DNA from: an uncultured Candidatus Saccharibacteria bacterium | Lineage (GTDB): Bacteria > Patescibacteriota > Minisyncoccia > Phycocordibacterales > UBA918 | Reading direction: 5' to 3' | Assembly: GCA_964502345.1 (NCBI GenBank) | Contig: CAZCWH010000001.1 | Location: 167 to 64,166, forward strand | DNA length: 64,000 nt | In this document: positions 43,001 through 60,379 of the stretch, one piece after another | How the letters are laid out: every line of letters starts with the position of its first letter | How positions within the stretch are numbered: the stretch's first letter is position 1 | Made by a program: the position numbers and the translations under genes | Notes under the pieces: generated by a model | Told to the model about the DNA's origin: nothing | What the model saw: the letters and a program-made list of their open reading frames with translations, nothing else | The model's database searches: none

Positions 43001-46000
43001 CGAGAATCGTAGTTGTTGCGTTACTTCCAGGTGTTGTGGTCCCAATGATACTTCCGTTACCAAGGACGAGGTTTGCGAGAGTCCATGCAGTTGTACCTCC
43101 AAGCGTATTTGTTTGGTAGATTGTTGTTGTACCACTTCCCATTGAGAGGACTCCATTTCCAGAAAGTGAGCCATTTACCACCGTGATATCAGCCGTTCCT
43201 GTGACCGTACCAAGCGTTACATCAATGTCCTGTAATGCTCTAATATCACCATTAATATTCCATCCACCACCAAGACCATTGAACTCAATTGTATTAAATG
43301 TAATCTCCTGAGTTCCAGTAGTGGTGATAGTCTTCCCCGTAGTCGTTGCATTCATAATGACCGTCGTTGAAGCACTCGCGAATGTTGCACCATCATCCAT
43401 AGTGAAACTTCCTCCAATTGTGTATGTAGATGAGGCAGATCCTGTAAAGATTGCATTATTGTCAATATGCAAAGATCCATCAAACGCGGTGGACGAGGCA
43501 TTCCCGTTAATGGTGATATTACCGTCTGGTGCAAACGTACTGCTCGAAGCAATGTGGAGCTCAGTATTAGCGAGCACGGTAAGTGTGCCTGTCGCGGCAA
43601 CAAACGAGATGTCACTATCGTTATCATTGTCATATGCTGACATCTTTAGAATGGTCATTGGCTCCGTATCCTCATGACGCGTAATAACTCTATTCTGATA
43701 GATATCAAGATCAGTGATATCTGAAATTGGTGTACGTGTTACTACTGTCCCCTTTGCACCACCGTTTGTATTGAGGTACACAGTTACCACCGGATCCCCC
43801 ACAACAACGACACCAGGAATACTAAATGAACCGTTTGCTGAGGCACAGGTACCTGTATACGAACTTCCACCTTGCACGACGATACGAATATTTGCTGTCA
43901 CATCATCACACACTGGATTTCCCATTCGGGTAACCCCGTCATCACTGTAGACGACACCAGAAACAGTAATGACAAGTGAGCTATCGTCCCATCTGACTGA
44001 ACCTGGGTCACCAGTATCATTATCAAATGCTTCACCATCAATATTTCCTGTTGAGTCTCGGAACCACCAGTACGATGTCGGTGTACCATCTGTCTGCGTT
44101 ACATTGGTCGCTGAAATTGCGGTCGTTGTTGAGAAATTGACTCGATATATTTGGAACCCTGGATTTGCGTTGATTGATGAGGAGGCAACAGTAAATCCAG
44201 TTCCTGCAGATATTCCTGGTTTTACAAAACCATCGTTCAGTGAAGATATGGTGCCTGCTCCTCTAAAAGTTACCCCTGCTGTCCCAAGATTACTAAATTC
44301 ATAATTATTGAATGTCGTCGCCGTTGAAGAAGCGATTACAACATACGTACCGCTTCCTTGATTAGCAACTGTTGTCGTAGCTGTCGAAGATCCAATCATT
44401 GAGAAAGTACTTCCAGAGAGTGTCGCACTCGTTCCTGAAGCAAGTCGTACATCAACTTGGCGTGAACTTCCACCAAGCGCTGTGCCATCAAAATCAGTTG
44501 CATAGCTCCAATGCTCAGTACCGGACGTTCGTGTATAGTCACCAAAAATATAGAGATCCCCGTCTACTGCAGAGTGATCCTGTGAGTAAATTGATGCTGT
44601 ATCGAGTGTTGAATATGTGTTTGCACTTGAATTCCACATGGAGATGTCAGTATCACCAACAACGAGAAGCGTGCCGTACACATCTCCCGCGTGACTCTTA
44701 CTATTAAGGGCACTGTCTCCACCAGTGAGTCGAAGCGTTGATCCTGTCCATGTTGTATTGCTGCCATTTGCTGCATGTGTAAATGTTCCACTTGCAGTAA
44801 GTGTCAGACCACTATTGAGCGTAAACTGGGACACATTGGTCAAAGACACTGCTACTGTTCCTGTTGCAGACTCGGTGACGGTGAAGTCTCCGGACGCACT
44901 ATTAAAATCAAGAGTTGAAAATGCTGAAGTACCAGCTGCAATAGTTTCACTGCCTCCAGAAGAATTGAATCTGACAGTGCCCCCATTTGCATCAAATATT
45001 GCATTATTGTCAAACGAACCACCTATCGACAGCACCCCTGTTGGGAATACAGCATCTCCACCGAGCTCAGAAATATAGTTTCCGAGAATCGTAGTATTCG
45101 TATCGCTAAATCTGCGTGAGCGAGAGCTCTCTTCTCCGCCAGCGGTGTAAAACGATGTCGAGGTTGCCATGTTGCGGTATTCTGCATCACGCCATGCATC
45201 AGCTCGAGTAGTTGTTGATACGCGCACCTCGTCAATTCGACCATCAAATGAAATAGGTGGTACACGATTCGGTCGAAGCCCAGATATGGTGAAGTTTGCA
45301 GTTGGGTCTGAATTGCCGGCTGTAAAACTACCGCGAGCAACACCGTTTACGCGGGTCGTGACAGTACTATTTCTCACTGCATTAATTGAGACATGGTACC
45401 AATTTCCTGCAACTAGATCAGCACCAGTTGTCACATTACACGTCGTCACGGTAGTAAATGCACGCACGCACACTTCATCAGGAGCCGGTGTGCCACCAAC
45501 TGATGTCCAGTCATAAACTCCCGCTGTTGAAACTCCGTACAAACTATACCCATAGGTATTAGTCTCCTGAGGTGCAGCTCCTGCGAGCGTATCAGGATTA
45601 AACCACATTGATACGTTGTACTGCGTCTGCCCATTGAGGAAGCTGCCTGTGTATTGAATCGGTGTTGTATCAAAGGATTGTGCTTTCTTTACACGCCCAG
45701 TTGAAACCTCGAGCGGGTTGTTCGAAACGGGGCTACCCGCTGTGTCTGTCTTAACACCAGTGATTGTACGAACACTATTCTGTACCACGCTCGTCGTGAG
45801 ATCATTCATGTGACTGACGAGTGTATAGCCATTACTCCATACACTTCGTGCTCCATATGGAGAAGTTGATGCGTAGGCACTCGCACCACTGTTACCATAG
45901 TAGATATAGAATGTCGTATCAGTCGTTGAAGAGACTGAAGTCGCTCTAAAGTAGAGTTCACCATCAGTGCCACTCGTGTCAATTGATACGAGTTCGATTG

Positions 46001-49000
46001 GTACTTCAGTCACTCCGTCACTCTCCGTGACACGGATATCACTACCATCGGTCTTTACGGTACTGAAGAATGCGGATGAGAGGTCGTCGAGATTGACGTA
46101 GACTGGGAAATTCGTGAGTCCTGCATCTATTTGGGAGGCTTGGATGGTGATCGGAATACGTCGAGTCCAAGAATCATTGTACCAAGAGGTCGCGATACCG
46201 CCTCGCGTACGTACATTATTAAATGAAGAACCATTTGTACTCACTGTCTTAGAGTTTTGTACAACAAAGATTACTTCGCCCGAATTATGTGTGAAGGCAC
46301 CAGTACCAGTGGTAGTAAAATCACCACTTACCGTAAGCGTACCTGATGGGAGTGTCACGGTACCAGCCTGGATACGGAATGTGTTGGATGTTGTTGCATT
46401 ACTTTCTGTAAATGCCCATGAACCAGAACCAGTGAAGACGAGATTATAAAAAGCATTAAGGAATGTTCCGCCACTCTGCGTAATCGAACGACCACCAGCA
46501 GTACTACTCATGACGACTGTCCCGTTATTGTGAGCAAACACACCCCCTGTATTAAGGAAGGATCCTGCGACTGTTGTCGTTGCTGTTGGTAACGTTACCG
46601 TCCCTGTTGCAATCGTGAGATGGTTACTTACCGTGAGTGTTGGAGCAGTGAATGACCATGAACCACCAACCCCAGAGAAGGTTAAGTTATAGAATGCACT
46701 CGAGCCGGTCGTAATGATTCTGTTCGTTGTTGTTGCAATGAAGGAAACAGTTCCAGTTCGAGCAGTAAAGGTATTATTGTTGATCCAATCTTCGTATACG
46801 GAAGCACTGAATCCTGTGATTGAAGCATCAAAGGCATCGTTTGCTCCAATAGTCATTGATTGCATGGTCACATTACTTCCCAGGACAAGTGTCTTTGTCG
46901 TACCATCAACAAGCACACGTCCAACATTTTGTTTAACAGCATTATTATCTGTCCATGTCGATGGGTTAATTCCATCAAATGTAGTCGTCCCCATACCGGT
47001 CCAATAACCACTTGCACCTATCGTGAGGTTGCCAGCGACGAAAATAGATGTGGTTCCTCGAGCAAGTGTTCCAAACGACACTCCTAAGTTACCATCCACA
47101 TCAAGTGTCGAAAGCGTATTCCATGTTGCTGTTCCACTCGTCTCACCAAAGGTTACGTTATTGAATCCACTAGTCACTGATCCAGTCTCATCTATTGATT
47201 CAGTTGATGAGGTGGCAGTGAATATGACCGTCGAGCCAGTCATGGTCGTTGTCGCATTATTGTCCCATGAACCACTCACTCGAATACTGTTACTACCTGC
47301 AGTAAAGGTGCCATAATTCCTAAGATCATGTGTAGTGACATCAGCTCCAGTTCCTGGTGCATACGTATTTCGTGTAAGTACAACAATACTTGCATCAGTA
47401 CAACCAGTATCAGCACACATAGTGAGATCATTCCCTGCATTCACATCAAAGAAGAGATCTTCATCATTCGTGTAATCGTACATACCAATCTGTGTATTCG
47501 TAGCAGTCACAAAGTCATTTGAACCAATGGTGAGATGACGTTTTTGAAGACGCATACCTGTCACGTCAGGCGTACCATCAAATACGGTGACCCCTACAGC
47601 TTCATCCACGTCATTCGCCCCACTTATAAATGTAGTAATTACATCCCCACTGAAGAGTGGGATATTCTCAATCTCCCATGTGCCGTCTCCAAGAATTGCA
47701 CCCGTCGCGCCAGACTGAAGTACTCCATTTACTGCTACTGCAACAGTACCCGCTGTGGTAGATGATACCCCGTCATACTCAAGCGCAGTACCCGATACCG
47801 TGAAGCCAGCTATCCATGTGACTGTCCAATCATCAAGTGTTGGACAATTTGCTCCACTACAATTGAGATTTCCAACAATCCGTATCTGGTTGTATGTTGT
47901 TGTATTAAGCGCTTCTAGATCAATAGGTGATGTGGTAAATCCTGTTGAATTCCCCGGAAGTGCACTATCAGGAATGAGTCCCCATACGCCAAGTCCATTA
48001 AGGAACTCGATCTGATATCGCACTTCACTTCCGCCTGGCTCAGAATCTCGCCATGACAATTCTCCCCACCCTGGTCCACTACCATCATCAAAATCTATAG
48101 TATCTGATTTAATACTACCCGAACTCAATACTGCTGGATTAACTGCGAATTGGAATCCTGTTGCACTATCGGCGACGCTCAAGCCAACAGTTGCTGCTCC
48201 TGTTCCTCCGGCACTTGCCACCAATTGAGTTCCCCATACTCCAGACGCATTAGCAGTTCCGCCTCCTGCCTGTATTTCATCACTCTCAGTCCAGCCTGTT
48301 CCTGAAACAGTGAATGGGTATACATCTCCACCGTCTCCACTTAAGAGATAGAATGCCAACGACTGGTCTTCTGTCGTCGTAATACCAGTAACTGCATGAC
48401 TGGCAGCACTTCCTCCATTATAGTCAGCACCAATAACATTTATAGGATCCGTGGTACTTGCTCCGGTTACTCTAATGTAGAATCCCCAGAAATCATCCGA
48501 TGATTGTGCGGGAACATTAATTGTTGTCCCCTCTGAACCATTTGCAACACGATAGAATGCTGCTGCATGAGCATCTGATACAGTGTCATTTCCTGATTCA
48601 TTAATGAGTGTGAACCCAGACGGCTTGAGTGTCGTATCATTCCACTGCGCTGTTGCAGAGTTATCATCACTTCCTACCAAAATAAGGAGGAGGTCACCTG
48701 AGACCACTCCGGATGGCTTCGTGAGTGTAAGCGAACTGCCAGGAATTGCTGTATTTGATGTCCAGCCACTTTCAACCACAATCCCTCCACCGATTCCTAC
48801 ACTATTTGTCGCTGCATCAACTCCTGAGAGTGTACCCTTATCAAACTGAAGTCCAAGAGTTTGGAACCAAGTTGACACTTGCACTGGTTCACCTGACGTT
48901 GCAGTCGTAAAACTCCATGGCTCTGACCATGTTGAAAAATTATCGCTTCCGCTTGGATCTTTAGCGCGAGCACGCCACCAGTACGTTGTACTTGCAGAAA

Positions 49001-52000
49001 GTGCGTCTCCTGGTTGAATTTTATACGAAATCGTGTCCCCTGAATCAAATGGGTTTGTGTCCCCACCATTAACAAGATTCACGAATCCTGTTGGTGAAGT
49101 GCTTGAGTTTCTTGTAGTGCTTCCCGTAGCGAAATTGTAATCTGTTGACCACGATACTTCGTACTCAATGTCGTCATTCTCTGGGTCAGAAGAAGAGAAG
49201 CCGAACGTTGGAGATGTTGTTGCAAATTTTTCATTATCAAATGGAGCACTGAGCGTTGGTACTTCTATACTTTCTGCCCATGCAAGTGTCCAATCAAGAA
49301 GTGTTGGCGCTCCAGTTCTAAAGTTTGCTCGAATGCGTATGACGTCGTACAGTGTGACATCAAGCCCACTAAGGTCAACGGGTGATGAGTCGTATCCAGC
49401 CGCATTTCCAGAGAGCGCACTGTCTGGAATCAAGAACCAGTCCCCATCATTTTCGTATTCAATATGGTAGAGAATATCATTTGCAGAACCTGTCTCGTTA
49501 AATGAAAGCTCCCCCCACACATTACCAATTGTTGCGTCGCTAAAATCAATCGCTGTTGATGTAGTCGTCGCGACCGTAGATCCACTTGCAAAAGCGACGA
49601 GATCGCTCGCAGTTGCTTCAGTACCATCATGAGTGTTTGTTTCAAACTGCTCCTCAGTTGTTTGGTACCACGTAGAGACAGTGAGTGATGTGTCTACTGT
49701 AAAACTCTGTGGAGTAGACCAGTCTCCATATGCAGCAGATCCACTCGCATCCTTAGAACGCACTCGCCACCAATACGTGACCCCATTGCTGAGTGACGAC
49801 GGAATTGTGTAACGCATTCTTGCATAATTATTAAACGGTGTTTTGTCTGAAGGAGTAGCAATGTTAAGGAAATCATCCAAATTAGTCTCTGAATCAGTAT
49901 CTATCACTGTGGAACTGAAAGCATAGTCATTATCAATCTGAATCTGATAATCAACTTCATCACCATTTTCATCGTAGCCAATAAACTCAAACCATGGTGA
50001 TGTGCTTGCAAGCTTTTCATTATCAAATGGCGCAAACATGTCTTCGATCAGTGGAGAAGCGTTTGTTACAAGTGTCGGAAACTGGGTGTAGGTATCAAGT
50101 TCTGTCCCGTCTGCATTAACCATTCTGAAACAGTACTGTGCTCCCGGTGTTGCATCATTATTTTGTAAAGCAAAATCCCACTCGGCAGCTTCACCAACAT
50201 TAATAGCATTTGGATTGGGTACTGTTGGATTTCCTTCCTCATAGGTTTCGAGTACATCTGAGTCAGTGAGCAATAGTGAGGTGAGCTCATACCCATCAGC
50301 GCTTCCACCCATCGATTCATCCGAAACGGTATAGAAATCCGTAGAGGTCGCCATATTGCGATACTCAGCGTCTCGCCATGCATCAGCTCGAGTCGTTGTC
50401 GATACACGGACCTCATCAATTCGTCCATCAAAACCGATGTTTCGTTGGGGTGTACCACGTAGATCACCGATAGTGAAGTTTGCACCCACGTTGTTCTCAC
50501 TACCATTAATATACGATAGTCGCTGTACTCCATTGACTCGAACAGTAGTGGTACCTCCGTCAATTGCATTCACCGATGTGTGGTACCAGTTACCTGTAGC
50601 TAGCCCTGCGCCACTTGTTGGCACACATGTGGTGGCTGTATCTTCATACGCACAGAGACGTAGCTCAGTGAGATTACCTGTACCCCCTGCAGTAAGCCAT
50701 TGATATGGTGCGGCTGTTGGTGAAATACCGTAGAGTGACAATCCATAGGTGCCCAAGTCTCCACCCCCGGTGAGTGCATCGGGATTAAACCAGAGTGAGA
50801 CAGCGTATTGGGTTGCATTTGTGAGCATGGTACCGGTGTACTGTATGAGATCAAGGCTAAAGTCTTGAGCCTCTGAAACAGGACCTGTACTTACTTCTGC
50901 AGGATTTCCAGCACTCGTCTTTACTCCATTGAGCGTCCCGGCACTATTCTCGACGACACTCGTCGTGAGATCATTCATATGGCTCACGAGAATGTATCCA
51001 TTACTCCATACACTTCGTGCTCCATATGGAGAAGTTGATGCGTAGGCACTCGCACCACTGTTACCATAGTAGATATAGAATGTCGTATCAGTCGTTGAAG
51101 AGACTGAAGTCGCTCTAAAGTAGAGTTCACCATCAGTGCCACTCGTGTCAATTGATACGAGTTCGATTGGTACTTCAGTCACTCCGTCACTCTCCGTGAC
51201 ACGGATATCACTACCATCGGTCTTTACGGTACTGAAGAATGCGGATGAGAGGTCGTCGAGATTGACGTAGACTGGGAAATTCGTGAGTCCTGCATCTATT
51301 TGGGAGGCTTGGATGGTGATGCGAGTCCTACTACTCCAATTTTCGTCGTACCAATCATCCATCGCAATACCATTTTCATATCCGCGCCAGAGCGCTGTAG
51401 TACTTGCAGCATCACCCACGTCGTACCATGTGAGATCAACGCTACATGTATCCCCTTCAGCATACTGTAAATTGAAGAGCTCAGAATCTGCACTTGCATT
51501 TGTACTCGAACCAACAAGTGACATGCGAAGCCGGAGTACATCAGCATTGAGTACTGCACTCGATGAGTCAATCGCTTCATTTTCATTTAGATCTACGCCT
51601 CCAACCGGCCATATGTCCGTTGGTGTGGTTGAAGCAGCATTTACATACCATTGGTAATCTTGCTGTACAAATTGGGGCGAGAGCACCCAACTCACGGTCC
51701 AATCTTCTAGTATTGGCGAGGTACTCGCACTGTCTTGCTGTAACTCCATCTGAAGACAAATACGATTGTAAGTCGTTGTAGATAGTGTTGAGATATCAAG
51801 TGGGCTCGTATCACTGGTAAAGCCTGTACTGTTTCCAGGAAGCGCTCCGTCAGTGATGATGGTGTCGCACACAGTAGTACTCGAGTAATACAAGCGCATG
51901 CGCGTCTCAGAACCTGCTGGCTCAGTGACGCTCCAACTCACCTCTCCCCATGTGCTTTGATTTGGCACTGAATCATGATCAACTTCAGTTGACATTATGG

Positions 52001-55000
52001 TTCCTTGGCTACCGGTACCTGCAACCTTTAAACTGATACCACTCATTGAATCATGCGTACCAGCGGCACTCGCGGTATGTCCGGAGGCTTCTGTCCCCGC
52101 CGTCGTGACGTTCCGATTATTGATATGGAATCCAAGACCCCAGTTAGTACCCGGTACATACGTTGCCGCAACAGACGATGGACTCGGCCAGGTTGCATTT
52201 GACCATGTGGTTACTGTACGTACACCAGCACCAGCTGTTGAACGTGCGAGATTAATGACCTCAATTGCTTGATCTCCTTGATTGATAGTGAGACCAGCTG
52301 AGAATGGACCTACTGTGGCATTTGCAGTGGCGCCACTGAAGTAGTTGCGTGCATCAGTCACTACAGTTGTTTGATCAACTCCTGCAAAAACAGCTGCATA
52401 TACGTAATTGTAATAGGAGGTTCCACCAGTAATGGTCACATCGAGGTCGTCCCCCGAGGCAGCAGCAATTCCCGCATCATTGAGGTAGAAAATGTACGTA
52501 TGATTTCGGTTGGTAGCATTTGTCGCATCCCCCACAGCAAGGGTCATAGCCTGACCGCCGTACGTCACACTCACGGACTGTGTCCCTACTGTGGTTCGAG
52601 TAGAACCAATTGCAACTACGAGCATTCGGTCAGTGCCTGCTGCTATTGCATAGCTCGCATTAACTGTTCCTGCTGGGTACGCAGTACTTGCGTACTGTTG
52701 CAGCCAGTCTGCTTGAGTCGTGATGACCGTTGAAGGAGTTCCGATGGTCTCAATCTCAACACTGTCTCCACTTGTCGTTGCATTTGAAAGTGTGGCTTCA
52801 TCAAACTGTGCATCAGTGGTTTGGTACCATTCAGGTACTCCTATAAACGTATTAACCGACATACTACGTGCAGTTGAAGTAGCACTCCATGTGTTGGTAC
52901 CAGAAGGATCTCGTGCGCGTACTGCCCACCAATAGGTTGTGCCTACCGTAAGCTCATCTCCAGCCTGGAGTGCATAGGTTGTCGTCGCCCCTGAGGCAAA
53001 TGTTGATGCACTCCATCCTGCATCAGTCGGATAATTTGAAGACTGCTTCGTCAAGATTGGCGAAGTGAGATTTGAACTTGTACTTACAATAAGCTCAAAT
53101 TCCATTGCGTCACCCTCAAAGTCAGTCGCAGCAAAACCTCCAAGTGTCGGTCGTGTTGTCGTGGCACGAAGATTATTAAACGCAGGATAAAGCGCGAGAT
53201 TTGGCGTATACGGTATCTGATTTGGAACCGCCCAGTCCACAGTCCAATCATTAAGCGACGGTGAGGTGGTACCAAAACCTAGATCGAAGGTCATCCGCAG
53301 ACAGATGCGATTATAGGTCGTCGTTGAAAGTGTATTGATGAACAACTCTGACGCCGTAACATCAAATCCAGTACTATTTCCTGGAAGTGCCGAGTCAGGA
53401 AGTATGGTGTCGCAGGCAAGCGTACTCGTATAGAACAACTGGAGTCGTGTATCGGTATGCGTTGGCTCAGTCGTATTCCAAGTCACTACTCCCCAGTCAC
53501 TCTGTCCGGATACAGAGTCAAAATCTACTTCAGGCGACATTACGGTACCTTTCACGTGTGAAGGATTAATAGCGAACTGGAATCCAGATGAGCTATCGTT
53601 CACAGAGAATGCAACCGTGGCAGCACCAGTTGCGCCCGCAGTCACCATCGAACGTGTTCCCCACGTACCAGCAGATCCATTTCCTCCAGCCCCTACCTGA
53701 ACTTCTGCACTCTCACTCCATCCAGTTCCTGAAACACTAAATGGGTATGTATCATCCCCATCACCAGAGATGACGTAGAATGCGAGCGTATTATTGACCG
53801 TTGTATTGACGCTTGTAACGGCGTGACTGACAGCTCCTGCATCGTCATTATCTGCTCCGACTACATTGATTGGATTTGTTGTTGATGCTCCCGTTACTCG
53901 AATATAGTATCCCCAATAATCGGCTGAGATTTGAGCAGGAACACTCGTTGTCGCTCCTTCTGTTCCGTCTGCAACTCGATAAAATGCAGCGGTGTGTGTA
54001 TCGGATGTGGTGTTTCCCGATTCATTGATGAGCGTGAATCCTGTTGGTTTAAGTGTCGTGTTATTCCACTGCGCGTTTGCAGTATTGTCATCATTACCCA
54101 CGATGATCATCAAAAGGTCCCCGATTTCTACATTTGATGGCTTCGTGAGTACGAGTGATGCACCTGGAGATGTGGTAGCTACTCTCCAGCCACTCACAAC
54201 GGTCGGGACAGCAGTACTTGTTGTCGCGAGCTGTGCAGTACCGGAGGTCGAAGCTGTATTTGTGAGTGTTCCTCTCTCAAATTGGCTACCTTCAGTCTGG
54301 AACCACGTCGATGGATCAATACCAGTCGTATACGTAAAACTTCGGACACTACTCCATTCACCCCAAATATTACCAACTGTTTCTTTCGCTCGAACACGCC
54401 AATAGTACGTCACTCCATTTGTAAGCGCAGTCTGTATGGTAAAGCGCATCTGTTCATTTTCGGTATACGGATGTGTATCGGTCGATGAGGCGGTATTGCT
54501 AAAACAATTCGGTGTACATCCGCTTTCATTGTCTGATGTCCGATCTCCAACAGGTGAAGTACCTACATCAACATCATCATCCCATTGGAACTGGTATACC
54601 AAGGTATCACTACCGTCAGGATCATTTGCAGTAAATGTGAAGGATGGTGTTGAAGTACCAGTCTGTTCATTATCAAAAAGCGCAATAGTAGTAGGTGCCT
54701 CAGGCACAGCACCTCCTACATCTCGCTTTGCAAACACTGCAGTTCTGAATGGAGGTATCGTTGCTACCGCTGAGAAGTTTGTGACGTCGACTTGATGCGT
54801 ATGTGCATTAGTCGTGACTGTATTATCAATAGTCACAAGGTCACGAGTCTGTGTACCACTTGGCCCCTGCGAGGTTACGGTAATGTTACTGTGAGTCGTC
54901 GTTGCAGCTCCGCCAGTGCCTCCATAAGTCGTGCTCGCTTTTACAAAGCGATTTTCAAATGGATCAGATGGTCCTGAGAGATCACCCCACCCGAGCGGTG

Positions 55001-58000
55001 CTTCATCTGTCCACATTGCAATCATTGCATCGGTTGGAGATGACGTTGCATTTAGTTTTCCGAGTACTGCTTCTCGATATGGTGGTTCATGGTTGACTGT
55101 ACCAGTGACAGAACTCACGATGTGTGTGTGGTTAGCAGACGCAGTATTTACCAAATTGTCACCTGCCGCTGCGGTAGTAAAGTTTCCTGTCGCCACAAGA
55201 CTTCCGGTAATACTGTGCGTGTGTGTATTAGAACTACTTGCGGTTCCTACCGTCGTTGTTGCTGCACCTCGTATATACCTTCCATCTTGTGCGGAATACT
55301 GTGTCCAACCAGTTGGAACGGCCGCATCAAAAATCGCAATGGCTCCCGCTGGGATTGTTGGTGGTGAACCAGCAGAATTGTACTGAATCACTACTAATTC
55401 CCGATAGGCGGGAAGATTGTTATCAGTTGAAATTGTGGGAGTATATGTGTGTGCGTGAGCAACTGTAGGCACATTCGTAGCACCTCCACCACCAGAGTTT
55501 ATTGACGTACTTGAAGCAGAGGCGGTAACTCCACCCGTTGCAGTGTGTGTGTGTGTCGAGACCCCACCATTAGTACCTGCAGTAGAAGAACCCTGAATGA
55601 ATCGTTGATAGAACACGTCCCCTGGCAGACACGATACACAGGTCCATCCTGATGGGATGTTTGTCCCGTCCCAGTACAAGAGCATATTTCCTGTCGCATC
55701 TGAAGCAATCTGCCACTGTCGGTGTTCAACAAATACAATATTTGTGGATGTAGCAACAACAAGAGGGGCGTCCCCAGTCGCAACTTCATCAAGAACAACG
55801 GTGCTGGTAGCCGTTTCTACATCTTCTTCCATTTCAACACCAGTATCTTCCGGGATTATTTCTTCTTCTAACAAAGGTACAGATTCATCTTCCACCTCAG
55901 TAGTAAACTCTGTTGTTTCAGCTTGTGTGAATAAGAACTTACCGATAACTTTCTTAAAGACCGAGACATACGATGATTCGTCACCCTCAGTCTGAAGAGA
56001 TGATTCGGTTGGTTCGGGAGCTACTTCCTCTTCTGGAGCCTCAGCTTCAGACTCAGTCGAAGGAACAGGTTCTGGTTCTACAGGGGTTTGCTCAGGTGTG
56101 ATTTCACCTGTCTCGCTCTCAACTGTAGACGAATCATCTGTTGGCACAGGCTCTGATGTTTCAGGAGTTACTGGCTCTACCGGAGACTCGTCTACCACTG
56201 GAGTGGATGATGCTTCAGGCTCGATAGGACTCTGTGTATCAGGTTCCATAGAACCTGATACATCAACCGGACCCTGACCTTCCGTGCCCTCCTCTATGAC
56301 TTCTGGTGACTGCACTTCCTCCCCAGTAACGGCAGCAACTGGCTCAATTTCATTTGAAATAAGTTGAGCGGGGCCAAGCTCATAGAGATATGGTGATATA
56401 TCGGGAGCATCAAATTCATACGAGACCGTAAGGCTCGAACTACTCGCCATATCCACCTTCCAGACGAGTTCAGTGTAGCTTTCCTGTGGTCTGATCTCTG
56501 CATCAGTATTAAATATTGCAAAACTTTTTGGTACACGCTCGACTATCTCACCAGTAAATGATCGACGCAGTGCATGGACGGTGAGTTCCATTGCGTATGG
56601 TGACGGTGGATAAATTCGAGTTGGCCCACTGCGCTCAATCACAATAGGTTGATTGCTTGCTACAAAGAACGTCTCTAGCGTATGTGAAATTACACTTCCA
56701 GACTCATCGACTCGCTCAAGGTACATTTCGTATTCACCTGGAACTCCTGTTACAAATTGGCTGCTGTAGTCCGGAACATCAATGACATTGTTTCCATTAC
56801 AGTAACCCGAAGGGAGAACTTGTGTGCTCGATATAAAGCCATTTGGGTCAGAAATGTATAGATTGAGATTTGCGTCACAGAGTGTATTTCCATTTGAGGT
56901 AAGCGCACCCATTGAAATATCTGCAACATCACCACTTTCATAGGTCGTTTGATTGCTGTTGATTGAGAGAAGTCCCCACTGGAATTCAAATGTATCAGTC
57001 GAGACGAGTCCTCCTTCATTGATTTCGAGCTCAACGGTGTAGATACCCGGGAAAAGCTGTTCTTTATCAGCCTCTGTCAACACAACTGAAATGAGCCCCT
57101 CTTGTGTGACCGTTACCTCAGGTGAGATCTCAACTTCCTCCCCTTCATTGTGGACAAATTCCACAGACTCTACTGTTGCCAGATCTCGTCCAAAGAAACT
57201 CCTAAACGCCTGCACGAGGAAATTACGTTGTGAGTTGTACCGGAGATTAAATTGTGGCAATTCCTCACGAAGGAAATCAAGTTTCTCACTCAAGAGTTCC
57301 ATACTCACAGGGCCATCCAAGTGCTTCAACATTTCATCAGATGAAAATCGTTCCTTGAGAAGTTCCTTATCAAATACGACCGTCCCAACCTCAAGCCACG
57401 CAGCATCTATGTAGAGAGACTGAAGTTGTTTCACGTCTCCATCAAATGAAATCGTGATGACAAGTTGCTTGAGAAGCTCTGGGTCTGTTATTGATGGGAG
57501 TGGAATGAGGTAATAGCCACCATTAATCGCATTCGATATTTCAGCATCAAGTAATATGCTTCCCGCATCTCGAGAGAATTCTCCAAACGAATATTCTACA
57601 GAAACGAACCCGGGCTTCTGTCCATTACTCATGTCATATTGACCAGCGAGCGAGAGACGAAGTTGTAAATTATTAATAAACTGTCCGGAAGCGAGCCCTG
57701 GGATACCAAAATTACTCAAAGTAATCTGTGGAGCAGCATTTGTTTCTTGTATAGGTTGAGCAACTGTTTGTCCACCAGTAGGTGCAGGTTCTTCGTCCTC
57801 GATTGAAGAGGTCGCTTCTTCAGCTGCTGGCAATATTTCTTCAGTCTCAGTTACGACTTCATCAGAAATAGTTTCTTCGGGTATTGAACTACTGGTCTCT
57901 TCCTCTGCAATAGGGATCTCTTCAGATGTTAATTCCTCCTCATTCAAAGGCTCGGAAGATTCCTCGTTAGTTTCCAAGATAAGTTCAGTCGTTTCAGCTT

Positions 58001-58766
58001 GCGTGAACAAGAACTTACCGACAACTTTCTTAAACACTGAGAAATAGGAAACTTCCTCCGGTGCTATTTCAGGAGAATCATTACTTGATTGCGAATCAGA
58101 TTCCTCGACAGCTGGAACGACTGTTTCTGTGACTGGGTCTTCTTCAGGTATTTCAGGAGAAACATCATCCTGCGGAGCTTGAGTATCACCTTCTGCATCT
58201 GGTAAATTCTCATTCTGCTCTGCATTACCCTCCTCAGTGCTATCTACTGACTCAGACTCGACCGAAGTATCCTCATCTGCTGTTCCAGAGTTTGAATCAG
58301 CATGTTGCAGCGCATACTCCCGATCAATGTGTGCAGAATTACTCGTATTAAACTCATGCGTAAGTGACTGCTCACTCAAATCCTGATTATTCACTGTCTG
58401 CACATTCAACCATCCTTGAGAAGAAATATCTGAAGGATACACATCAATGGACTCATTCTGAGGTTTAAAACTGCTTTCCTTTTTGGCTTGTGCAACAGAT
58501 GCATCGAATGAAGAGAGAAGCGTAAATGAAAGCAGAACACAGAAAGCAACGCATGCGAAGAGGACTTTTCTCTTACTGCGCTGAATATTTGTAACATGAG
58601 AAAAATTAAAAATTTCAACAAAATTTGTTACATACTTAATTTTTTGTGTACTAAAATCAACAAAACGCCACAGCTTTGATTCCAGCGCTCTAAATATGAT
58701 TATTTTATTGTCCGCTCTTGTTTTTCTTGAGAAAAATCTCATCAACTCAACAAGCAACCCGACCAC
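37020..58766 (-). CDS. giant secreted surface protein (7248 aa, 21.7-kb ORF). Signal peptide, acidic low-complexity stalks, phage-tail-collar-like HxH repeats, FN3/Ig-like domains, DUF2341+LamG pairs, long beta-helix-like repeat region, and the type-B C-terminal module.
   Basis: uninterrupted ORF. DUF2341-like W..R..ItI......LtNFPV.V.L...........dG.D.R....dg...P.E...........YF......YIYYGN followed by LamG_3-like ...DEVRVSTTTRADAWRDAEYRNM (twice). HTHT/NHTHI/NAHTHQ repeats each ending PPYR/PPFR. The start codon is uncertain because a 75-aa basic leader precedes the signal peptide. Confidence 0.9.
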   Translation of the reverse strand: MVGLLVELMRFFSRKTRADNKIIIFRALESKLWRFVDFSTQKIKYVTNFVEIFNFSHVTNIQRSKRKVLFACVAFCVLLSFTLLSSFDASVAQAKKESSFKPQNESIDVYPSDISSQGWLNVQTVNNQDLSEQSLTHEFNTSNSAHIDREYALQHADSNSGTADEDTSVESESVDSTEEGNAEQNENLPDAEGDTQAPQDDVSPEIPEEDPVTETVVPAVEESDSQSSNDSPEIAPEEVSYFSVFKKVVGKFLFTQAETTELILETNEESSEPLNEEELTSEEIPIAEEETSSSIPEETISDEVVTETEEILPAAEEATSSIEDEEPAPTGGQTVAQPIQETNAAPQITLSNFGIPGLASGQFINNLQLRLSLAGQYDMSNGQKPGFVSVEYSFGEFSRDAGSILLDAEISNAINGGYYLIPLPSITDPELLKQLVITISFDGDVKQLQSLYIDAAWLEVGTVVFDKELLKERFSSDEMLKHLDGPVSMELLSEKLDFLREELPQFNLRYNSQRNFLVQAFRSFFGRDLATVESVEFVHNEGEEVEISPEVTVTQEGLISVVLTEADKEQLFPGIYTVELEINEGGLVSTDTFEFQWGLLSINSNQTTYESGDVADISMGALTSNGNTLCDANLNLYISDPNGFISSTQVLPSGYCNGNNVIDVPDYSSQFVTGVPGEYEMYLERVDESGSVISHTLETFFVASNQPIVIERSGPTRIYPPSPYAMELTVHALRRSFTGEIVERVPKSFAIFNTDAEIRPQESYTELVWKVDMASSSSLTVSYEFDAPDISPYLYELGPAQLISNEIEPVAAVTGEEVQSPEVIEEGTEGQGPVDVSGSMEPDTQSPIEPEASSTPVVDESPVEPVTPETSEPVPTDDSSTVESETGEITPEQTPVEPEPVPSTESEAEAPEEEVAPEPTESSLQTEGDESSYVSVFKKVIGKFLFTQAETTEFTTEVEDESVPLLEEEIIPEDTGVEMEEDVETATSTVVLDEVATGDAPLVVATSTNIVFVEHRQWQIASDATGNMLLYWDGTNIPSGWTCVSCLPGDVFYQRFIQGSSTAGTNGGVSTHTHTATGGVTASASSTSINSGGGGATNVPTVAHAHTYTPTISTDNNLPAYRELVVIQYNSAGSPPTIPAGAIAIFDAAVPTGWTQYSAQDGRYIRGAATTTVGTASSSNTHTHSITGSLVATGNFTTAAAGDNLVNTASANHTHIVSSVTGTVNHEPPYREAVLGKLNATSSPTDAMIAMWTDEAPLGWGDLSGPSDPFENRFVKASTTYGGTGGAATTTHSNITVTSQGPSGTQTRDLVTIDNTVTTNAHTHQVDVTNFSAVATIPPFRTAVFAKRDVGGAVPEAPTTIALFDNEQTGTSTPSFTFTANDPDGSDTLVYQFQWDDDVDVGTSPVGDRTSDNESGCTPNCFSNTASSTDTHPYTENEQMRFTIQTALTNGVTYYWRVRAKETVGNIWGEWSSVRSFTYTTGIDPSTWFQTEGSQFERGTLTNTASTSGTAQLATTSTAVPTVVSGWRVATTSPGASLVLTKPSNVEIGDLLMIIVGNDDNTANAQWNNTTLKPTGFTLINESGNTTSDTHTAAFYRVADGTEGATTSVPAQISADYWGYYIRVTGASTTNPINVVGADNDDAGAVSHAVTSVNTTVNNTLAFYVISGDGDDTYPFSVSGTGWSESAEVQVGAGGNGSAGTWGTRSMVTAGATGAATVAFSVNDSSSGFQFAINPSHVKGTVMSPEVDFDSVSGQSDWGVVTWNTTEPTHTDTRLQLFYTSTLACDTILPDSALPGNSTGFDVTASELFINTLSTTTYNRICLRMTFDLGFGTTSPSLNDWTVDWAVPNQIPYTPNLALYPAFNNLRATTTRPTLGGFAATDFEGDAMEFELIVSTSSNLTSPILTKQSSNYPTDAGWSASTFASGATTTYALQAGDELTVGTTYWWAVRARDPSGTNTWSATSTARSMSVNTFIGVPEWYQTTDAQFDEATLSNATTSGDSVEIETIGTPSTVITTQADWLQQYASTAYPAGTVNASYAIAAGTDRMLVVAIGSTRTTVGTQSVSVTYGGQAMTLAVGDATNATNRNHTYIFYLNDAGIAAASGDDLDVTITGGTSYYNYVYAAVFAGVDQTTVVTDARNYFSGATANATVGPFSAGLTINQGDQAIEVINLARSTAGAGVRTVTTWSNATWPSPSSVAATYVPGTNWGLGFHINNRNVTTAGTEASGHTASAAGTHDSMSGISLKVAGTGSQGTIMSTEVDHDSVPNQSTWGEVSWSVTEPAGSETRMRLYYSSTTVCDTIITDGALPGNSTGFTSDTSPLDISTLSTTTYNRICLQMELQQDSASTSPILEDWTVSWVLSPQFVQQDYQWYVNAASTTPTDIWPVGGVDLNENEAIDSSSAVLNADVLRLRMSLVGSSTNASADSELFNLQYAEGDTCSVDLTWYDVGDAASTTALWRGYENGIAMDDWYDENWSSRTRITIQASQIDAGLTNFPVYVNLDDLSSAFFSTVKTDGSDIRVTESDGVTEVPIELVSIDTSGTDGELYFRATSVSSTTDTTFYIYYGNSGASAYASTSPYGARSVWSNGYILVSHMNDLTTSVVENSAGTLNGVKTSAGNPAEVSTGPVSEAQDFSLDLIQYTGTMLTNATQYAVSLWFNPDALTGGGDLGTYGLSLYGISPTAAPYQWLTAGGTGNLTELRLCAYEDTATTCVPTSGAGLATGNWYHTSVNAIDGGTTTVRVNGVQRLSYINGSENNVGANFTIGDLRGTPQRNIGFDGRIDEVRVSTTTRADAWRDAEYRNMATSTDFYTVSDESMGGSADGYELTSLLLTDSDVLETYEEGNPTVPNPNAINVGEAAEWDFALQNNDATPGAQYCFRMVNADGTELDTYTQFPTLVTNASPLIEDMFAPFDNEKLASTSPWFEFIGYDENGDEVDYQIQIDNDYAFSSTVIDTDSETNLDDFLNIATPSDKTPFNNYARMRYTIPSSLSNGVTYWWRVRSKDASGSAAYGDWSTPQSFTVDTSLTVSTWYQTTEEQFETNTHDGTEATASDLVAFASGSTVATTTSTAIDFSDATIGNVWGELSFNETGSANDILYHIEYENDGDWFLIPDSALSGNAAGYDSSPVDLSGLDVTLYDVIRIRANFRTGAPTLLDWTLAWAESIEVPTLSAPFDNEKFATTSPTFGFSSSDPENDDIEYEVSWSTDYNFATGSTTRNSSTSPTGFVNLVNGGDTNPFDSGDTISYKIQPGDALSASTTYWWRARAKDPSGSDNFSTWSEPWSFTTATSGEPVQVSTWFQTLGLQFDKGTLSGVDAATNSVGIGGGIVVESGWTSNTAIPGSSLTLTKPSGVVSGDLLLILVGSDDNSATAQWNDTTLKPSGFTLINESGNDTVSDAHAAAFYRVANGSEGTTINVPAQSSDDFWGFYIRVTGASTTDPINVIGADYNGGSAASHAVTGITTTEDQSLAFYLLSGDGGDVYPFTVSGTGWTESDEIQAGGGTANASGVWGTQLVASAGGTGAATVGLSVADSATGFQFAVNPAVLSSGSIKSDTIDFDDGSGPGWGELSWRDSEPGGSEVRYQIEFLNGLGVWGLIPDSALPGNSTGFTTSPIDLEALNTTTYNQIRIVGNLNCSGANCPTLDDWTVTWIAGFTVSGTALEYDGVSSTTAGTVAVAVNGVLQSGATGAILGDGTWEIENIPLFSGDVITTFISGANDVDEAVGVTVFDGTPDVTGMRLQKRHLTIGSNDFVTATNTQIGMYDYTNDEDLFFDVNAGNDLTMCADTGCTDASIVVLTRNTYAPGTGADVTTHDLRNYGTFTAGSNSIRVSGSWDNNATTTMTGSTVIFTATSSTESIDETGSVTSGFNNVTFGETSGTATWNTLSTLDVDGNLGVSFGTLARGTTSIFVAGNLTIGASGYWTGMGTTTFDGINPSTWTDNNAVKQNVGRVLVDGTTKTLVLGSNVTMQSMTIGANDAFDASITGFSASVYEDWINNNTFTARTGTVSFIATTTNRIITTGSSAFYNLTFSGVGGSWSFTAPTLTVSNHLTIATGTVTLPTATTTVAGSFLNTGGVFAHNNGTVVMSSTAGGRSITQSGGTFLNAFYNLVFTGSGSWAFTESNATTSNTFRIQAGTVTLPSGTLTVSGDFTTTGTGAFTHNSGEVIFVVQNSKTVSTNGSSFNNVRTRGGIATSWYNDSWTRRIPITIQASQIDAGLTNFPVYVNLDDLSSAFFSTVKTDGSDIRVTESDGVTEVPIELVSIDTSGTDGELYFRATSVSSTTDTTFYIYYGNSGASAYASTSPYGARSVWSNGYTLVSHMNDLTTSVVQNSVRTITGVKTDTAGSPVSNNPLEVSTGRVKKAQSFDTTPIQYTGSFLNGQTQYNVSMWFNPDTLAGAAPQETNTYGYSLYGVSTAGVYDWTSVGGTPAPDEVCVRAFTTVTTCNVTTGADLVAGNWYHVSINAVRNSTVTTRVNGVARGSFTAGNSDPTANFTISGLRPNRVPPISFDGRIDEVRVSTTTRADAWRDAEYRNMATSTSFYTAGGEESSRSRRFSDTNTTILGNYISELGGDAVFPTGVLSIGGSFDNNAIFDANGGTVRFNSSGGSETIAAGTSAFSTLDFNSASGDFTVTESATGTVAVSLTNVSQFTLNSGLTLTASGTFTHAANGSNTTWTGSTLRLTGGDSALNSKSHAGDVYGTLLVVGDTDISMWNSSANTYSTLDTASIYSQDHSAVDGDLYIFGDYTRTSGTEHWSYATDFDGTALGGSSRQVDVRLASGTSATLSGSTFSMIGSSTATTTVANQGSGTYVVIASSTATTFNNYEFSNLGTAGVTFRGAGTISSLNDGFVKPGISAGTGFTVASSSINANPGFQIYRVNFSTTTAISATNVTQTDGTPTSYWWFRDSTGNIDGEAFDNDTGDPGSVRWDDSSLVITVSGVVYSDDGVTRMGNPVCDDVTANIRIVVQGGSSYTGTCASANGSFSIPGVVVVGDPVVTVYLNTNGGAKGTVVTRTPISDITDLDIYQNRVITRHEDTEPMTILKMSAYDNDNDSDISFVAATGTLTVLANTELHIASSSTFAPDGNITINGNASSTAFDGSLHIDNNAIFTGSASSTYTIGGSFTMDDGATFASASTTVIMNATTTGKTITTTGTQEITFNTIEFNGLGGGWNINGDIRALQDIDVTLGTVTGTADITVVNGSLSGNGVLSMGSGTTTIYQTNTLGGTTAWTLANLVLGNGSIIGTTTPGSNATTTILGKLTINTAHYLDAGSSLWNLSGTGNVFVESGTFLEDTSTVRYSGAGATNVISTTYYNLDLKAQGSSPTYTGTGLGIIVSNNLTVGGPNATTFTLDTSDPAFDVNGNITIDSTGTLIGSASANFTVAGSWDNNGTYTGSSGTVTFDGAGTPSIAAGNSPFANLTINGSGAFTVSEPATTTGAFSLTNAGSFTLASGQSLAVGGLFTNGQGGGVTTWTSSVLHFYGSGSYSINASTTSDTYEKLSVGSGTQIRMWNSTAGTYDTHANGSLYSQDHGGVNGDLYIYGAYSKTSGTDYWSYTTDFDGTNISGTPRNVDVYIRGGGSVLYTGGGLSVLGLDSASTTIQNQGSGTYSFRIGGSASTTWSYYDMQDMDASGLTLSGTPNVVTLAYGDITVSQNSGTAMTVGGTVITQNPAKTFTNNYFATSTGITPAYNVTATGTTASSWRFTNHAGSIDGEDFDVDPDGNPGYIVWDNSSSSITVSGTVYSDEGTTPMGVSVCDGSTQSIHLRVGGLTSYTGSCNGSGLYSIPGVLYSPNDSLVVYIDGETEKAATVTEDPVSNITGLDLYENRVIVRHESSDPLSIVDMSLWDSSDDADIPFTAVDGTPDTLTLPANRKLIVWTGKEFEPNGNITVTGGGGGSAYDGTLELYTNAVFDATGSETHSIGGSLISGTGASIDDETSTFVFTTSGAGRTVDTNSSSLYDATFNGSGSWTVTNTTFDIGNDFTVAQGTVTLPSATTTVTGSLSVTGGSFTSSGGTMVFNSGSAETIRPRSSSFGTLVVNGVGSFSLQGGYATTTGDVRIVDGSFTSATGTLTIGGNFINSDVFVHGSGELRFTSAGAVVVTASTSDLYSTTFAGGGAYTFTNTNVALLGSLTIQSGAVTLATGTMSIGGSLLNTGGSFNNASGSILFNSSDTGEIINPGNSLFHNVTLASGGGGWTISANATTTGNFSLTSASSFTQSSSTRLYVGGVFTNLVGGAPTTWTGSTLVINSGSSYTINSKSAGGDTYNNIRVGSSTELRAWDSTGTITITDSESSFYSQDHAGVSGVLYIYGDYERTAGADYWSYATDFDGTALGGSSRQVFVYIAANATTTLQGGSLNIVGASGFDTTISNQGSGTYAIDILGGTLNALYYSFANMNVDGLKLSGLTTVSSLTEGNFTLAVNGGSLITLSSTTLNYNAGLFVTGVAFATTTAITGANVELSGSTPSAWTFVSHTGNFDGEAFDIDGGDACGSIRWDDSNCILIEQSAYRFRNDDGGEGVPNSEWFDFDWSKRKRVTVTNSDPVTYHDVAVKVIVPYDSDMQADFDDLRFTEEDGLTAVEHFTESYTASTQAVVWVKVPTLATSTTATVYMYYGEGTVSDGSATSTFDFMDNFEDGNISEYTGDTGDFSVVGSSAYERTYRLEAFDQTNSKTDQNMRNLGVTVAQGQTLRWLQYIDTVSGAADESCTHFGVQTGATSYAVCLELFGVDRLSISENATHRDTSGTVLASTTVTYSTGWYEVEVDWDTDDSIYVRLSKNGSVVATTSATDSSYTSGGVGFTLWGYHGGWDIYSARPLMATAATTSLGGEQVPGGATWTSARNTPASGIDIGETARVRFLVENSGTPVSAQNYEIEFAPKGAAPSCESVDYNDYVEVPNVASCGTSDICMVSSSNITDLESTTDLLGGSGVFTPGQVVEDSSNNTGSLDVDSGEFTELEYVIAPTINVSDSNYCFRVTNEGAELDAYTKVAELSLVFTPVVTSLSLNGGNDITLSPGATTTIYATGTVSDLNGYGDLNLATTTMFRSSVLSSCTSDPNNCYIASPTQCVFENCSGSSCDVTCSADFYYHADPTDVGTYAGQTWRAELSVSDQSGAIATGTAPSIDLLTLRAITVDSTINYGALEVNNDTGSYNATTTVENIGNDALDIAIAGTDLTDGNSSLIPVNEQIFATSTFTYTTCTFCSQLSASSTNYELDLTKPTSTTPSVSDQLFWGIAIPFGVAGNPHQGTNTFYAIGD
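45831..46150. repeat. intragenic direct repeat, copy 2 (about 320 bp, 100% identical to 51000..51320) inside a ~1.1-kb diverged duplication
   Basis: direct comparison of the two stretches encoding DUF2341 unit 2. Flanking sequence is ~80% identical. Confidence 0.8.
51000..51320. repeat. intragenic direct repeat, copy 1 (identical to 45831..46150)
   Basis: same as above. It encodes ...IQASQIDAGLTNFPVYVNLDDLSSAFFSTVKTDGSDIRVTESDGVTEVPIELVSIDTSGTDGELYFRATSVSSTTDTTFYIYYGNSGASAYASTSPYGARSVWSNGY. Confidence 0.8.
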
Positions 58767-58849: not shown

Positions 58850-60379
58850 TTACTTTAGAATTTTATTGACGTCACTTATTTCCTTTTCTATAAGCGTCTC
58901 AGAGACTTCGAGTGCCTGATTGAGGCCTTCTACAGCTTCACGCTCCTTCTTTGATAGTCGTTGTTTCTTAGTAATGAGGTTAATCTGATCGTAAATTTCG
59001 TCACGAAGTGCAGAGAATATCTTTTCCATCTGGTCCTGAATTTCCTTCGTCTCTTTACGAAGTTTGTGCTCCTTCTGGTCATGCTGCTTTCGTAGATAAA
59101 TCATATACCCTGTCTGGCAGAAGAAAAGGATTATGAGGAGCATAATTATGAGATTCTTTCCCTTGAAGAAATCCCAAATTGAACTTTCATCAATAACCGC
59201 TGATGGAGGAAGCCATCCGGCAGTAATAAGGACAGGGACAGTTGAACGCATCTTATTGCCTGCAAAGTCATATGCTACAACCTCAACAGTATATGTTCCG
59301 TCCTCGAGCTTATTGAGAAGGTAACCAAGTTTCGCCTCATCAGGCGTTACTTCAATCATCTCTTGGTCGGCGATGGTCATTTCGTATCGCTCAATACCTG
59401 AAGTTTCATCTTTTGCTTCAAAGGTGAGCATCGGGAATGATGTAGGTGAGTTGCCAGCACGCACATTTATCGTAAATGGCTGCGGAGGTTGCGTATCAAT
59501 CTTCAACATTCGATGCAGAATACCTCCCCACCCAACCTGATTCTTAAATTGAAGCGTCAAGTACTGCACTCCTTCAAAAAGTACTTCATCATTAGTTGTA
59601 AACTCTTCAATCGGAGGGTCATATCGGGTGACTGGTGTAAAGTCTGATGACGTTGCAATATCGAGCGCTACTTCAGTAACATCAAATGGAAGCGTCCAGG
59701 TAAAAATACCAGTCTTGGTTGAATACCATAATTCAGGATCTAAAAATGTGGTTGAGCCTGCCTCTGGAGCGCGGGGTGGATCACCAAATGTAATAGTTGC
59801 ATCGTCAGATGGCTCTTCTGCAACAGGCTCTTCTTCGGATGGTGGAGGTGTTACCGGTGCGGTTGCCGCGGTTACTGTATAGCTTGCTGGATTTCCACGT
59901 GTATAGACATCAGTGCCGAGGCCGTCAGCCGCAAGCACTGAAGCTGACGCAACAGTGGCTGCGCCTGTTCCTTCCGCAAGTGTTTTAAAGGTTACAGCAA
60001 TCAGGGTTGACCGTGCAGTGAACGGTGTCGGACTTCCTCCTCCAAAGTCAATGGTACCAGCACTGTTTGAAAAGGTTGGTTCTGTTGTCCATAGTGAAAA
60101 TACTGAACCAGTTTTTGAAACACTTACCACCGAGAGCTTTGTATTATCAAATGACAATTTCGCTTCAACCGCATTGACACTTTTACCCTGTGGATCAACC
60201 TGCACCGTCACCGTGAACGATTGTCCAATTGCATAACTGCCCGTTGATGGCGAAAAGTTGATTTCCGCCGCATGTGCAAACGTCGCTGCACCAAAAAAAC
60301 CGAGTGCAAGCACCGTGAGGTAAAATATTTTTCTAAATTGATTTAAATGAACTGAAAGAACCATAAACGTAAGACACAT
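58850..60379 (-). CDS. cohesin-domain bitopic membrane protein with a cytoplasmic coiled-coil tail
   Basis: signal peptide. Cohesin-like AEINFSPSTGSYAIGQSFTVTVQVDPQGKSVNAVEAKLSFDNTKLSVVSVS...SLW. TM (IIMLLIILFFCQTGYMIY) plus a ~100-aa charged helical tail. The likely start is ATG at 60379 with an AAGGAG SD. The track start 60382 is GTG. Confidence 0.7.
   Translation of the reverse strand: MCLTFMVLSVHLNQFRKIFYLTVLALGFFGAATFAHAAEINFSPSTGSYAIGQSFTVTVQVDPQGKSVNAVEAKLSFDNTKLSVVSVSKTGSVFSLWTTEPTFSNSAGTIDFGGGSPTPFTARSTLIAVTFKTLAEGTGAATVASASVLAADGLGTDVYTRGNPASYTVTAATAPVTPPPSEEEPVAEEPSDDATITFGDPPRAPEAGSTTFLDPELWYSTKTGIFTWTLPFDVTEVALDIATSSDFTPVTRYDPPIEEFTTNDEVLFEGVQYLTLQFKNQVGWGGILHRMLKIDTQPPQPFTINVRAGNSPTSFPMLTFEAKDETSGIERYEMTIADQEMIEVTPDEAKLGYLLNKLEDGTYTVEVVAYDFAGNKMRSTVPVLITAGWLPPSAVIDESSIWDFFKGKNLIIMLLIILFFCQTGYMIYLRKQHDQKEHKLRKETKEIQDQMEKIFSALRDEIYDQINLITKKQRLSKKEREAVEGLNQALEVSETLIEKEISDVNKILK

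Follow-up and report, generated by a model that had tools for sequence, protein, structure and literature searches.

The HxH units of a giant protein

The window analysed here is a 64,000-nucleotide stretch of a contig (CAZCWH010000001.1) from an uncultured Candidatus Saccharibacteria bacterium. It contains a giant open reading frame (ORF) on the minus strand that encodes a protein of 7,248 amino acids (aa), and within this protein lies a module of three tandem repeat units carrying motifs of the type His-x-His (HxH). A search with the module gave 32 homologues, nearly all of which span the whole three-unit stretch, and a 62-sequence alignment of single units, A2, was cut from module homologues; its profile delimits the units of the window (Table 1). 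All strings that an earlier note had quoted from this protein are present on the minus strand in the frame of the giant ORF; the plus-strand frames of the same region, which are full of stops, were rejected. The range given in that note, 54780-55700, does hold the module, but its lower end misses the last strand of unit 3, and the complete module runs from 54720 to 55697. Likewise, the pairing of HxH motifs in every unit is found in units 1 and 2 but not in unit 3, whose first motif retains one His (T1290-T-H1292).

Table 1. Features of the three-unit module and of the ORF that carries it (window positions; aa numbers refer to the giant protein; AF2, AlphaFold2; HMM, hidden Markov model; i-E, independent E-value)
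Feature	Window position	Strand	Basis or remark
Giant ORF, 7,248 aa, carries the module	37020..58766	minus	ORF listing and Pfam
N-terminal signal/anchor segment, aa 66-94, KRKVLFACVAFCVLLSFTLLSSFDASVAQA	58485..58571	minus	Kyte-Doolittle scan; would direct export
Complete three-unit module, aa 1024-1349	54720..55697	minus	A2 profile; one compact body in AF2
Unit 1, aa 1024-1131	55374..55697	minus	A2 profile i-E 4.6e-34; best on position-1 short-type HMM
Unit 1 first HxH, H1072-T-H1074	55545..55553	minus	Proposed metal site A
Unit 1 second HxH, H1104-A-H1106	55449..55457	minus	Proposed site B; these two His hardly vary across the family
Unit 1 closing strand P-A-Y-R, aa 1119-1122	55401..55412	minus	Counterpart of the C-terminal LPPYY strand of Collar-type tips
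Unit 2, aa 1137-1240	55047..55358	minus	A2 profile i-E 6.9e-27; position-specific HMM
Unit 2 first HxH, H1182-T-H1184	55215..55223	minus	Proposed metal site A
Unit 2 second HxH, H1213-T-H1215	55122..55130	minus	Proposed site B
Unit 2 closing strand P-P-Y-R, aa 1228-1231	55074..55085	minus	Motif scan
Unit 3, aa 1245-1349	54720..55034	minus	A2 profile i-E 5.4e-29; position-specific HMM
Unit 3 degenerate first motif, T1290-T-H1292	54891..54899	minus	One of the six site-A His lost
Unit 3 second HxH, H1322-T-H1324	54795..54803	minus	Proposed site B
Unit 3 closing strand P-P-F-R, aa 1338-1341	54744..54755	minus	Motif scan; beyond the range of the earlier note

The pattern H.H occurs five times in the whole 7,248-aa protein, at aa 1072, 1104, 1182, 1213 and 1322, and each group of His motifs is followed by one P[PA][YF]R, the three copies in the protein starting at aa 1119, 1228 and 1338. 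When the protein was shuffled with its composition preserved, the mean number of HxH was 0.66, and five or more were reached in 0.02% of 5,000 shuffles. The three units, each of ~105 aa, are 31-33% identical to one another (BLASTP E 1e-16 to 1e-8), and successive units are separated by only 3-5 residues. Judged by its sequence, the HxH region is a true tandem triplication and not low complexity. The window copy has the make-up of a single-chain three-unit HxH module: three tandem units, P-x-GW, at least two HxH and a PPY closing strand.

The three units appear to be not three separate binding modules but one module with a fixed copy number of three, a point that the earlier note had missed, and AF2 builds it as one body. 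With the three-unit alignment (331 residues), AF2 predicted a single compact body with a predicted local distance difference test score (pLDDT) of 85.1 and a predicted template modelling score (pTM) of 0.79; for one unit alone the values were 78.9 and 0.50. The confidence of the first HxH region was ~61 in the lone unit versus ~93 in the full module. A pTM of 0.79 over three units would not be expected of loosely linked beads.

Exactly three units were present in 30 of the 32 first-round homologues, the exceptions being a protein with two units, which looks truncated, and a single C-terminal unit. When 1.84 billion representatives were searched by HMMER with the unit profile, 8,378 matched at E<=0.001, 813 of them at E<=1e-30. 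The 150 best-scoring representatives included 145 new proteins, which carried three units (117 proteins), six (25), nine (1), four (1) or seven (1). On these counts, the copy number is fixed at three or its multiples.

The units of one module also agree with each other in HxH number and length. Two types could be distinguished, a short type with 2,2,2 motifs and units of ~105 aa and a long type with 3-4 motifs and units of ~135-145 aa, and the mean within-module range was 0.535, compared with 0.775 +/- 0.02 when units were shuffled among proteins. Position-specific HMMs were built from 137 other short-type modules, and each window unit scored best on the model of its own position: unit 1 with 140 bits versus 94 and 74, unit 2 with 119 versus 74 and 64, and unit 3 with 115 versus 82 and 66. 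It follows that the triplication is old and that the three positions have specialised.

Some variation in arrangement was seen among the homologues. Some proteins have 6 or 9 units, which make up two or three complete modules placed side by side or apart (P0129-P0152, P0138, P0134). In P0145, P0147, P0152 and P0244 the units are not contiguous but are separated by insertions of ~200 aa, which suggests that other domains can be inserted between or into units. In several of the proteins with an apparent 1.5 units (P0033, P0035), the similarity stops immediately behind the first HxH of the second unit, and the C-terminal end is unrelated. Such proteins seem to come from three-unit genes with a frameshift or truncation and not to be true short forms; P0033 lies on a 90-kb contig.

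Relation to Collar-type fibre tips

The likeness to phage tail collar and MdpB-type domains that had been noted earlier stands as distant homology, seen by profile comparison and through bridging proteins, but not as membership in Collar by the Pfam criterion. Among the PDB sequences, A2 matched 9qgo_A (E 3.6e-7) and 9nxk_A (1.3e-3) and, more weakly, 7z47_I (0.017) and 6ov6_A (0.036), and each of these entries contains three copies of the matched chain. The first, 9qgo, is the fibre Pvc13 of the Photorhabdus PVC, a contractile injection system; its three copies are intertwined, and its C-terminal region has been described as homologous to the host-binding domains of phage short tail fibres. 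Entry 9nxk is gp60 of Pseudomonas phage Pa223, a trimeric fibre whose tip resembles the T4 gp37 tip, and 6ov6 is C24, the receptor-binding protein of a Bizionia temperate phage or prophage, which resembles the T4 long-tail-fibre tip. In phage Sf14, a C24-like domain is located in the middle of the fibre.

When 5.8 billion proteins were searched with A2, 96 small proteins were retrieved, most of them consisting of a single unit. Of these 96, five are annotated with PF07484 (Collar) and one with PF21939 (Gp10_C), and four go under the name "microcystin-dependent protein". P0079, P0083, P0092, P0122 and P0125, which A2 matched in this search at E 4e-9 to 6e-4, score 25-52.6 bits with the Collar model, above its gathering score of 24 bits. 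In these bridging single-unit proteins, the Collar match begins exactly where the unit does, and what remains of the unit profile is aligned to their HxH region and to the LPPYY strand at the C-terminus; the unit profile is matched along the whole C-terminal domain. Taken with the PDB matches, the bridging proteins above the Collar threshold indicate that the unit is, at the level of profiles, a divergent homologue of the Collar/gp12/MdpB-type fibre tip, while it stays outside Collar as Pfam delimits that family.

The unit has the same layout as the Collar-type domain (PF07484, MdpB and the T4 gp12-gp10 C-terminal domain PF21939): an opening strand with P-x-GW, R-F-x-x-G, a G-x-T-GG turn, HxH motifs and a closing (L)PPY strand. 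Two differences were seen. The window units lack the CDG-x-TPDLR core that is scored by the Pfam Collar model, and known Collar-type members carry one unit per chain and form homotrimers, with three identical chains in the gp12/gp37-type tips, whereas the window module has three diverged units in one chain. The solved homotrimeric tips nearest to the module are Pvc13 (9qgo), Pa223 gp60 (9nxk), C24 (6ov6) and the T4 gp37 needle tip (2xgf). As for other family collections, NCBIfam gave no match, PHROGs gave marginal matches only (e.g., a tail fibre family at E 0.046), and the sole near-match in Pfam, DUF6143 (E 0.011-0.027), was discarded at 15-16 bits, its cut-off being 27.

A structural comparison of the AF2 model by Foldseek, which the earlier note had proposed against phage fibre tips, gave nothing significant in the PDB, but in BFVD the whole module matched two proteins of Actinoplanes phage phiAsp2, Pas28 (E 7e-15; template modelling score on the query, TMq, 0.59) and Pas29 (E 1.9e-14, TMq 0.57). 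Both proteins have the single-chain architecture of the window module, with exactly three tandem units each; they belong to the long type, with units of ~135-145 aa and four HxH in each (12 in the whole protein), and are ~20% identical to the window module. The phiAsp2 module genes lie in the tail-gene block, directly after a gene annotated as "tail protein". For Pas29, the annotation names HXHY motifs and a possible role in recognising a receptor. Another three-unit protein, P0024, is encoded close to portal and capsid genes on an SU10-like phage contig.

The module had also been taken for a phage-derived element grafted into a bacterial protein, and this was not borne out. A tblastn search of the module against 50,697 GenBank phage records gave no match, a scan of IMG/VR gave no relative of the window module, and positional orthology between the phage long-type and the cellular short-type units was not detectable with the position-specific HMMs. 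The triplication may have occurred once or several times, and any transfer may have run in either direction.

Proposed mechanism and competing readings

In the window copy, 11 of the 12 canonical His are present and in register across the three units, six for proposed metal site B and five for site A. In the alignment of homologues, the six site-B His, which make up the second HxH of every unit, all occupy columns with a conservation of at least 90%. Conservation is lowest in the segments that link the first HxH of a unit to its second, which vary in sequence and length among homologues and also have the lowest AF2 confidence; they are likely candidates for a ligand-contact surface. The gp12 protein of T4 has a Zn site. 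For the T4 gp37 tail fibre, a passage of PMC11705849 cites iron ions coordinated by HxH motifs in six-His sites. By analogy with gp12 and gp37, the number of His in the module would be enough for two six-His metal sites, with metal binding and geometry presumably as in those tips.

We consider it probable that the three units together are one single-chain, pseudo-threefold copy of the homotrimeric HxH receptor-binding tip (the Collar/T4 gp12/gp37-tip/MdpB lineage), that is, a metal-clamped binding head. In the phage tips, each of three identical chains contributes an HxH motif, and six His clamp a metal on the threefold axis. Here, an old internal triplication would provide the three "chains" from one polypeptide, and a head made in this way could fold without partner chains and find a place within a giant secreted protein that is itself monomeric. 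Site B would be formed by H1104, H1106, H1213, H1215, H1322 and H1324, and site A by H1072, H1074, H1182, H1184 and H1292. The variable loops between the HxH motifs would serve as the ligand-contact surface, with which the module would most likely bind a surface structure of a partner or host cell. A surface-exposed binding role in an episymbiotic lifestyle seems to be the most economical reading.

Several observations weigh against this proposal. With hmmscan, the Pfam Collar model matched neither the module nor single units nor the whole giant protein, even at E<=10, contrary to what the earlier note had led us to look for; among 33 module homologues it gave three weak matches, the best at E 0.2. 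Site A is incomplete in the window, with five of six His and T1290 in place of the sixth, and one degenerate first motif is found in many family members, patterns of 1,2,2 and 2,2,1 being common. The agreement of HxH counts within modules could partly reflect shared ancestry and not a structural constraint. Finally, the census of unit numbers covers the 150 best-scoring of the 8,378 representatives; proteins with four or five units should nevertheless appear in it, because scores add over units and such proteins would outrank those with three.

A different arrangement would have three independent Collar-like domains, the threefold sites being formed between three copies of the giant protein that trimerise in register. 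All solved relatives are indeed homotrimers, and even the lone unit is predicted with moderate confidence (pLDDT 78.9). In-register homotrimerisation, however, would impose no rule on the copy number, which is locked to 3, 6 and 9; moreover, the AF2 monomer places the units confidently (pTM 0.79 versus 0.50 for one unit), the three positions now carry distinct unit types, each conserved at its place, and the gaps between units are only 3-5 residues long. We therefore regard such an intermolecular trimer as quite unlikely. It is also conceivable that the pseudo-trimeric fold is mainly a rigid metal-clamped structural joint or a metal store and not a ligand-binding head, since the usual view of HxH metal sites in fibres and spikes is that they stabilise the structure, the module occupies aa 1024-1349 of 7,248, away from the chain termini, and the C24-like domain of phage Sf14 is mid-fibre as well. 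Against this, the named relatives (the Pvc13 C-terminal region, C24 and Pas29) are described or annotated as host- or receptor-binding, and the loops between HxH motifs are highly variable in sequence and length, as expected of a specificity surface; a mainly structural role thus seems unlikely.

That a bacterial gene recently acquired the region from the tail-fibre gene of a phage or prophage would fit the occurrence of three-unit modules in phage phiAsp2 and on the SU10-like phage contig, but it appears very unlikely given the absence of relatives in the GenBank phage records and IMG/VR, and the phage long-type units have no positional correspondence to those of the window. The window units are positional orthologues of those in the 137 other short-type modules, of which the named ones come from the candidate phyla radiation (CPR) and DPANN, so that both the triplication and its residence in cellular proteins are old. 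It is hardly credible that the HxH/PPYR pattern arose by chance or from low complexity, or that it marks an unrelated metal-binding or catalytic site of a protein rich in Thr, Ser and Gly. The giant protein does consist of Thr, Ser and Gly to 35%, and Pfam, PHROGs and NCBIfam hold no significant family match; yet this explanation is refuted by the shuffles (5 HxH versus 0.66 expected), by the alignment of the units over ~100 aa with E down to 1e-16, by the 8,378 representative relatives (813 at E<=1e-30) and by the matches of the unit profile to fibre tips in the PDB.

Collar-type homotrimeric tips and HxH metal sites are already known. A described pseudo-trimeric or tandem Collar module, or Collar domains in Patescibacteria, were not found in the literature searched. 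A triplicated single-chain tip that keeps to three units and is widespread among giant proteins of CPR and DPANN was likewise absent from that literature, Pfam and NCBIfam. The module family comprises at least 813 clusters at 50% identity (E<=1e-30) without a Pfam or NCBIfam model, and with a curated one many proteins would gain an annotation (8,378 representative clusters reach E<=0.001). To our knowledge, host recognition by ultra-small episymbionts (Saccharibacteria, other CPR and DPANN) is largely unknown, and their giant surface proteins are mostly unannotated. The module offers a testable handle on this recognition: ~330 aa with fibre-tip ancestry, a predicted compact fold, eleven named candidate His ligands and variable loops that could set specificity. 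As a more tentative idea, which we hold to be possible but would not yet favour, CPR and DPANN may share an uncurated domain class, a monomeric triplicated fibre tip with two six-His metal centres that occurs one to three times per giant protein and recognises the partner cell. If true, these organisms would use the same solution to recognition as phages, freed from trimer assembly. For protein evolution, the module would be a case of an obligate homotrimer turned into a single-chain pseudo-trimer, with three faces free to diverge and a head that can be inserted into monomeric proteins.

Cellular relatives and the surroundings of the module

The module is common in giant surface proteins of CPR and DPANN and is also found in some phage proteins. 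The closest genomic relatives are from Saccharibacteria, Paceibacterota and a Patescibacteria single-cell genome, and in three of the four closest relative loci the module is inside an ORF that overruns the 7-kb locus. Among the members named after DUF2341 are one of 5,649 aa from Paceibacterota and one of 5,808 aa from a Woesearchaeota archaeon. With the latter member, which is an example with six units, the module spans the bacterial and archaeal domains.

Stand-alone proteins of ~500 aa from Patescibacteria and relatives (P0002-P0019) share the short-type module of the window and its three positional unit types, at 37-45% identity, but they are small secreted proteins and not parts of a giant multidomain protein. 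In such proteins, e.g., P0002, the N-terminus looks like a TasA/camelysin-type (SipW-dependent) signal peptide, as far as sequence features tell. The P0002 gene is located between genes for a Peptidase_M73 protein (camelysin/TasA family) and an S26 signal peptidase (locus L003, 6330-10037; also L004).

In the giant protein of the window, the Kyte-Doolittle scan detected one hydrophobic stretch only, which is N-terminal and ends in AQA; no other transmembrane-like segment was seen in the 7,248 aa. From this signal-like N-terminus, we infer that a Patescibacteria (Saccharibacteria-like) cell exports the giant protein. The module is preceded by acidic linkers and, according to Pfam, followed by DUF2341 and Ig-like (Rha78A_N-type) domains. 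The neighbouring genes encode cohesin, dockerin, fn3 and MacB-type ABC proteins. With its signal-like N-terminus, its DUF2341 and Ig-like domains and its cohesin, dockerin and fn3 neighbours, the giant protein may act as a surface adhesin.

A 16-aa sequence, FKKV[VI]GKFLFTQAETT, occurs twice upstream of the module, at aa 245-260 and 937-952 (window 57987-58034 and 55911-55958, minus strand). Each copy is inside a long acidic linker rich in Glu, Pro, Ser and Thr, whereas the motif itself is hydrophobic and basic; one copy lies ~70 aa upstream of the module. Immediately after the module is an fn3/Ig-like segment (aa ~1360-1490, window ~54300-54690, minus strand) that contains …YYWRVRAKETVGNIWGEWS…, and some of the stand-alone homologues (P0022, P0026) have a segment like it behind the module; this pairing may thus be conserved.

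A scan of all six frames found no second module elsewhere in the window. The window has a second very large ORF of 2,471 aa (12916-20331, minus strand), which carries no unit of the module family. Around the giant ORF, one cohesin-domain protein and two dockerin-domain proteins with Ig-like domains are encoded at 58850-60382, 61171-63042 and 28538-29662, all on the minus strand. These genes suggest a cohesin-dockerin surface assembly system in this Patescibacteria-like genome.

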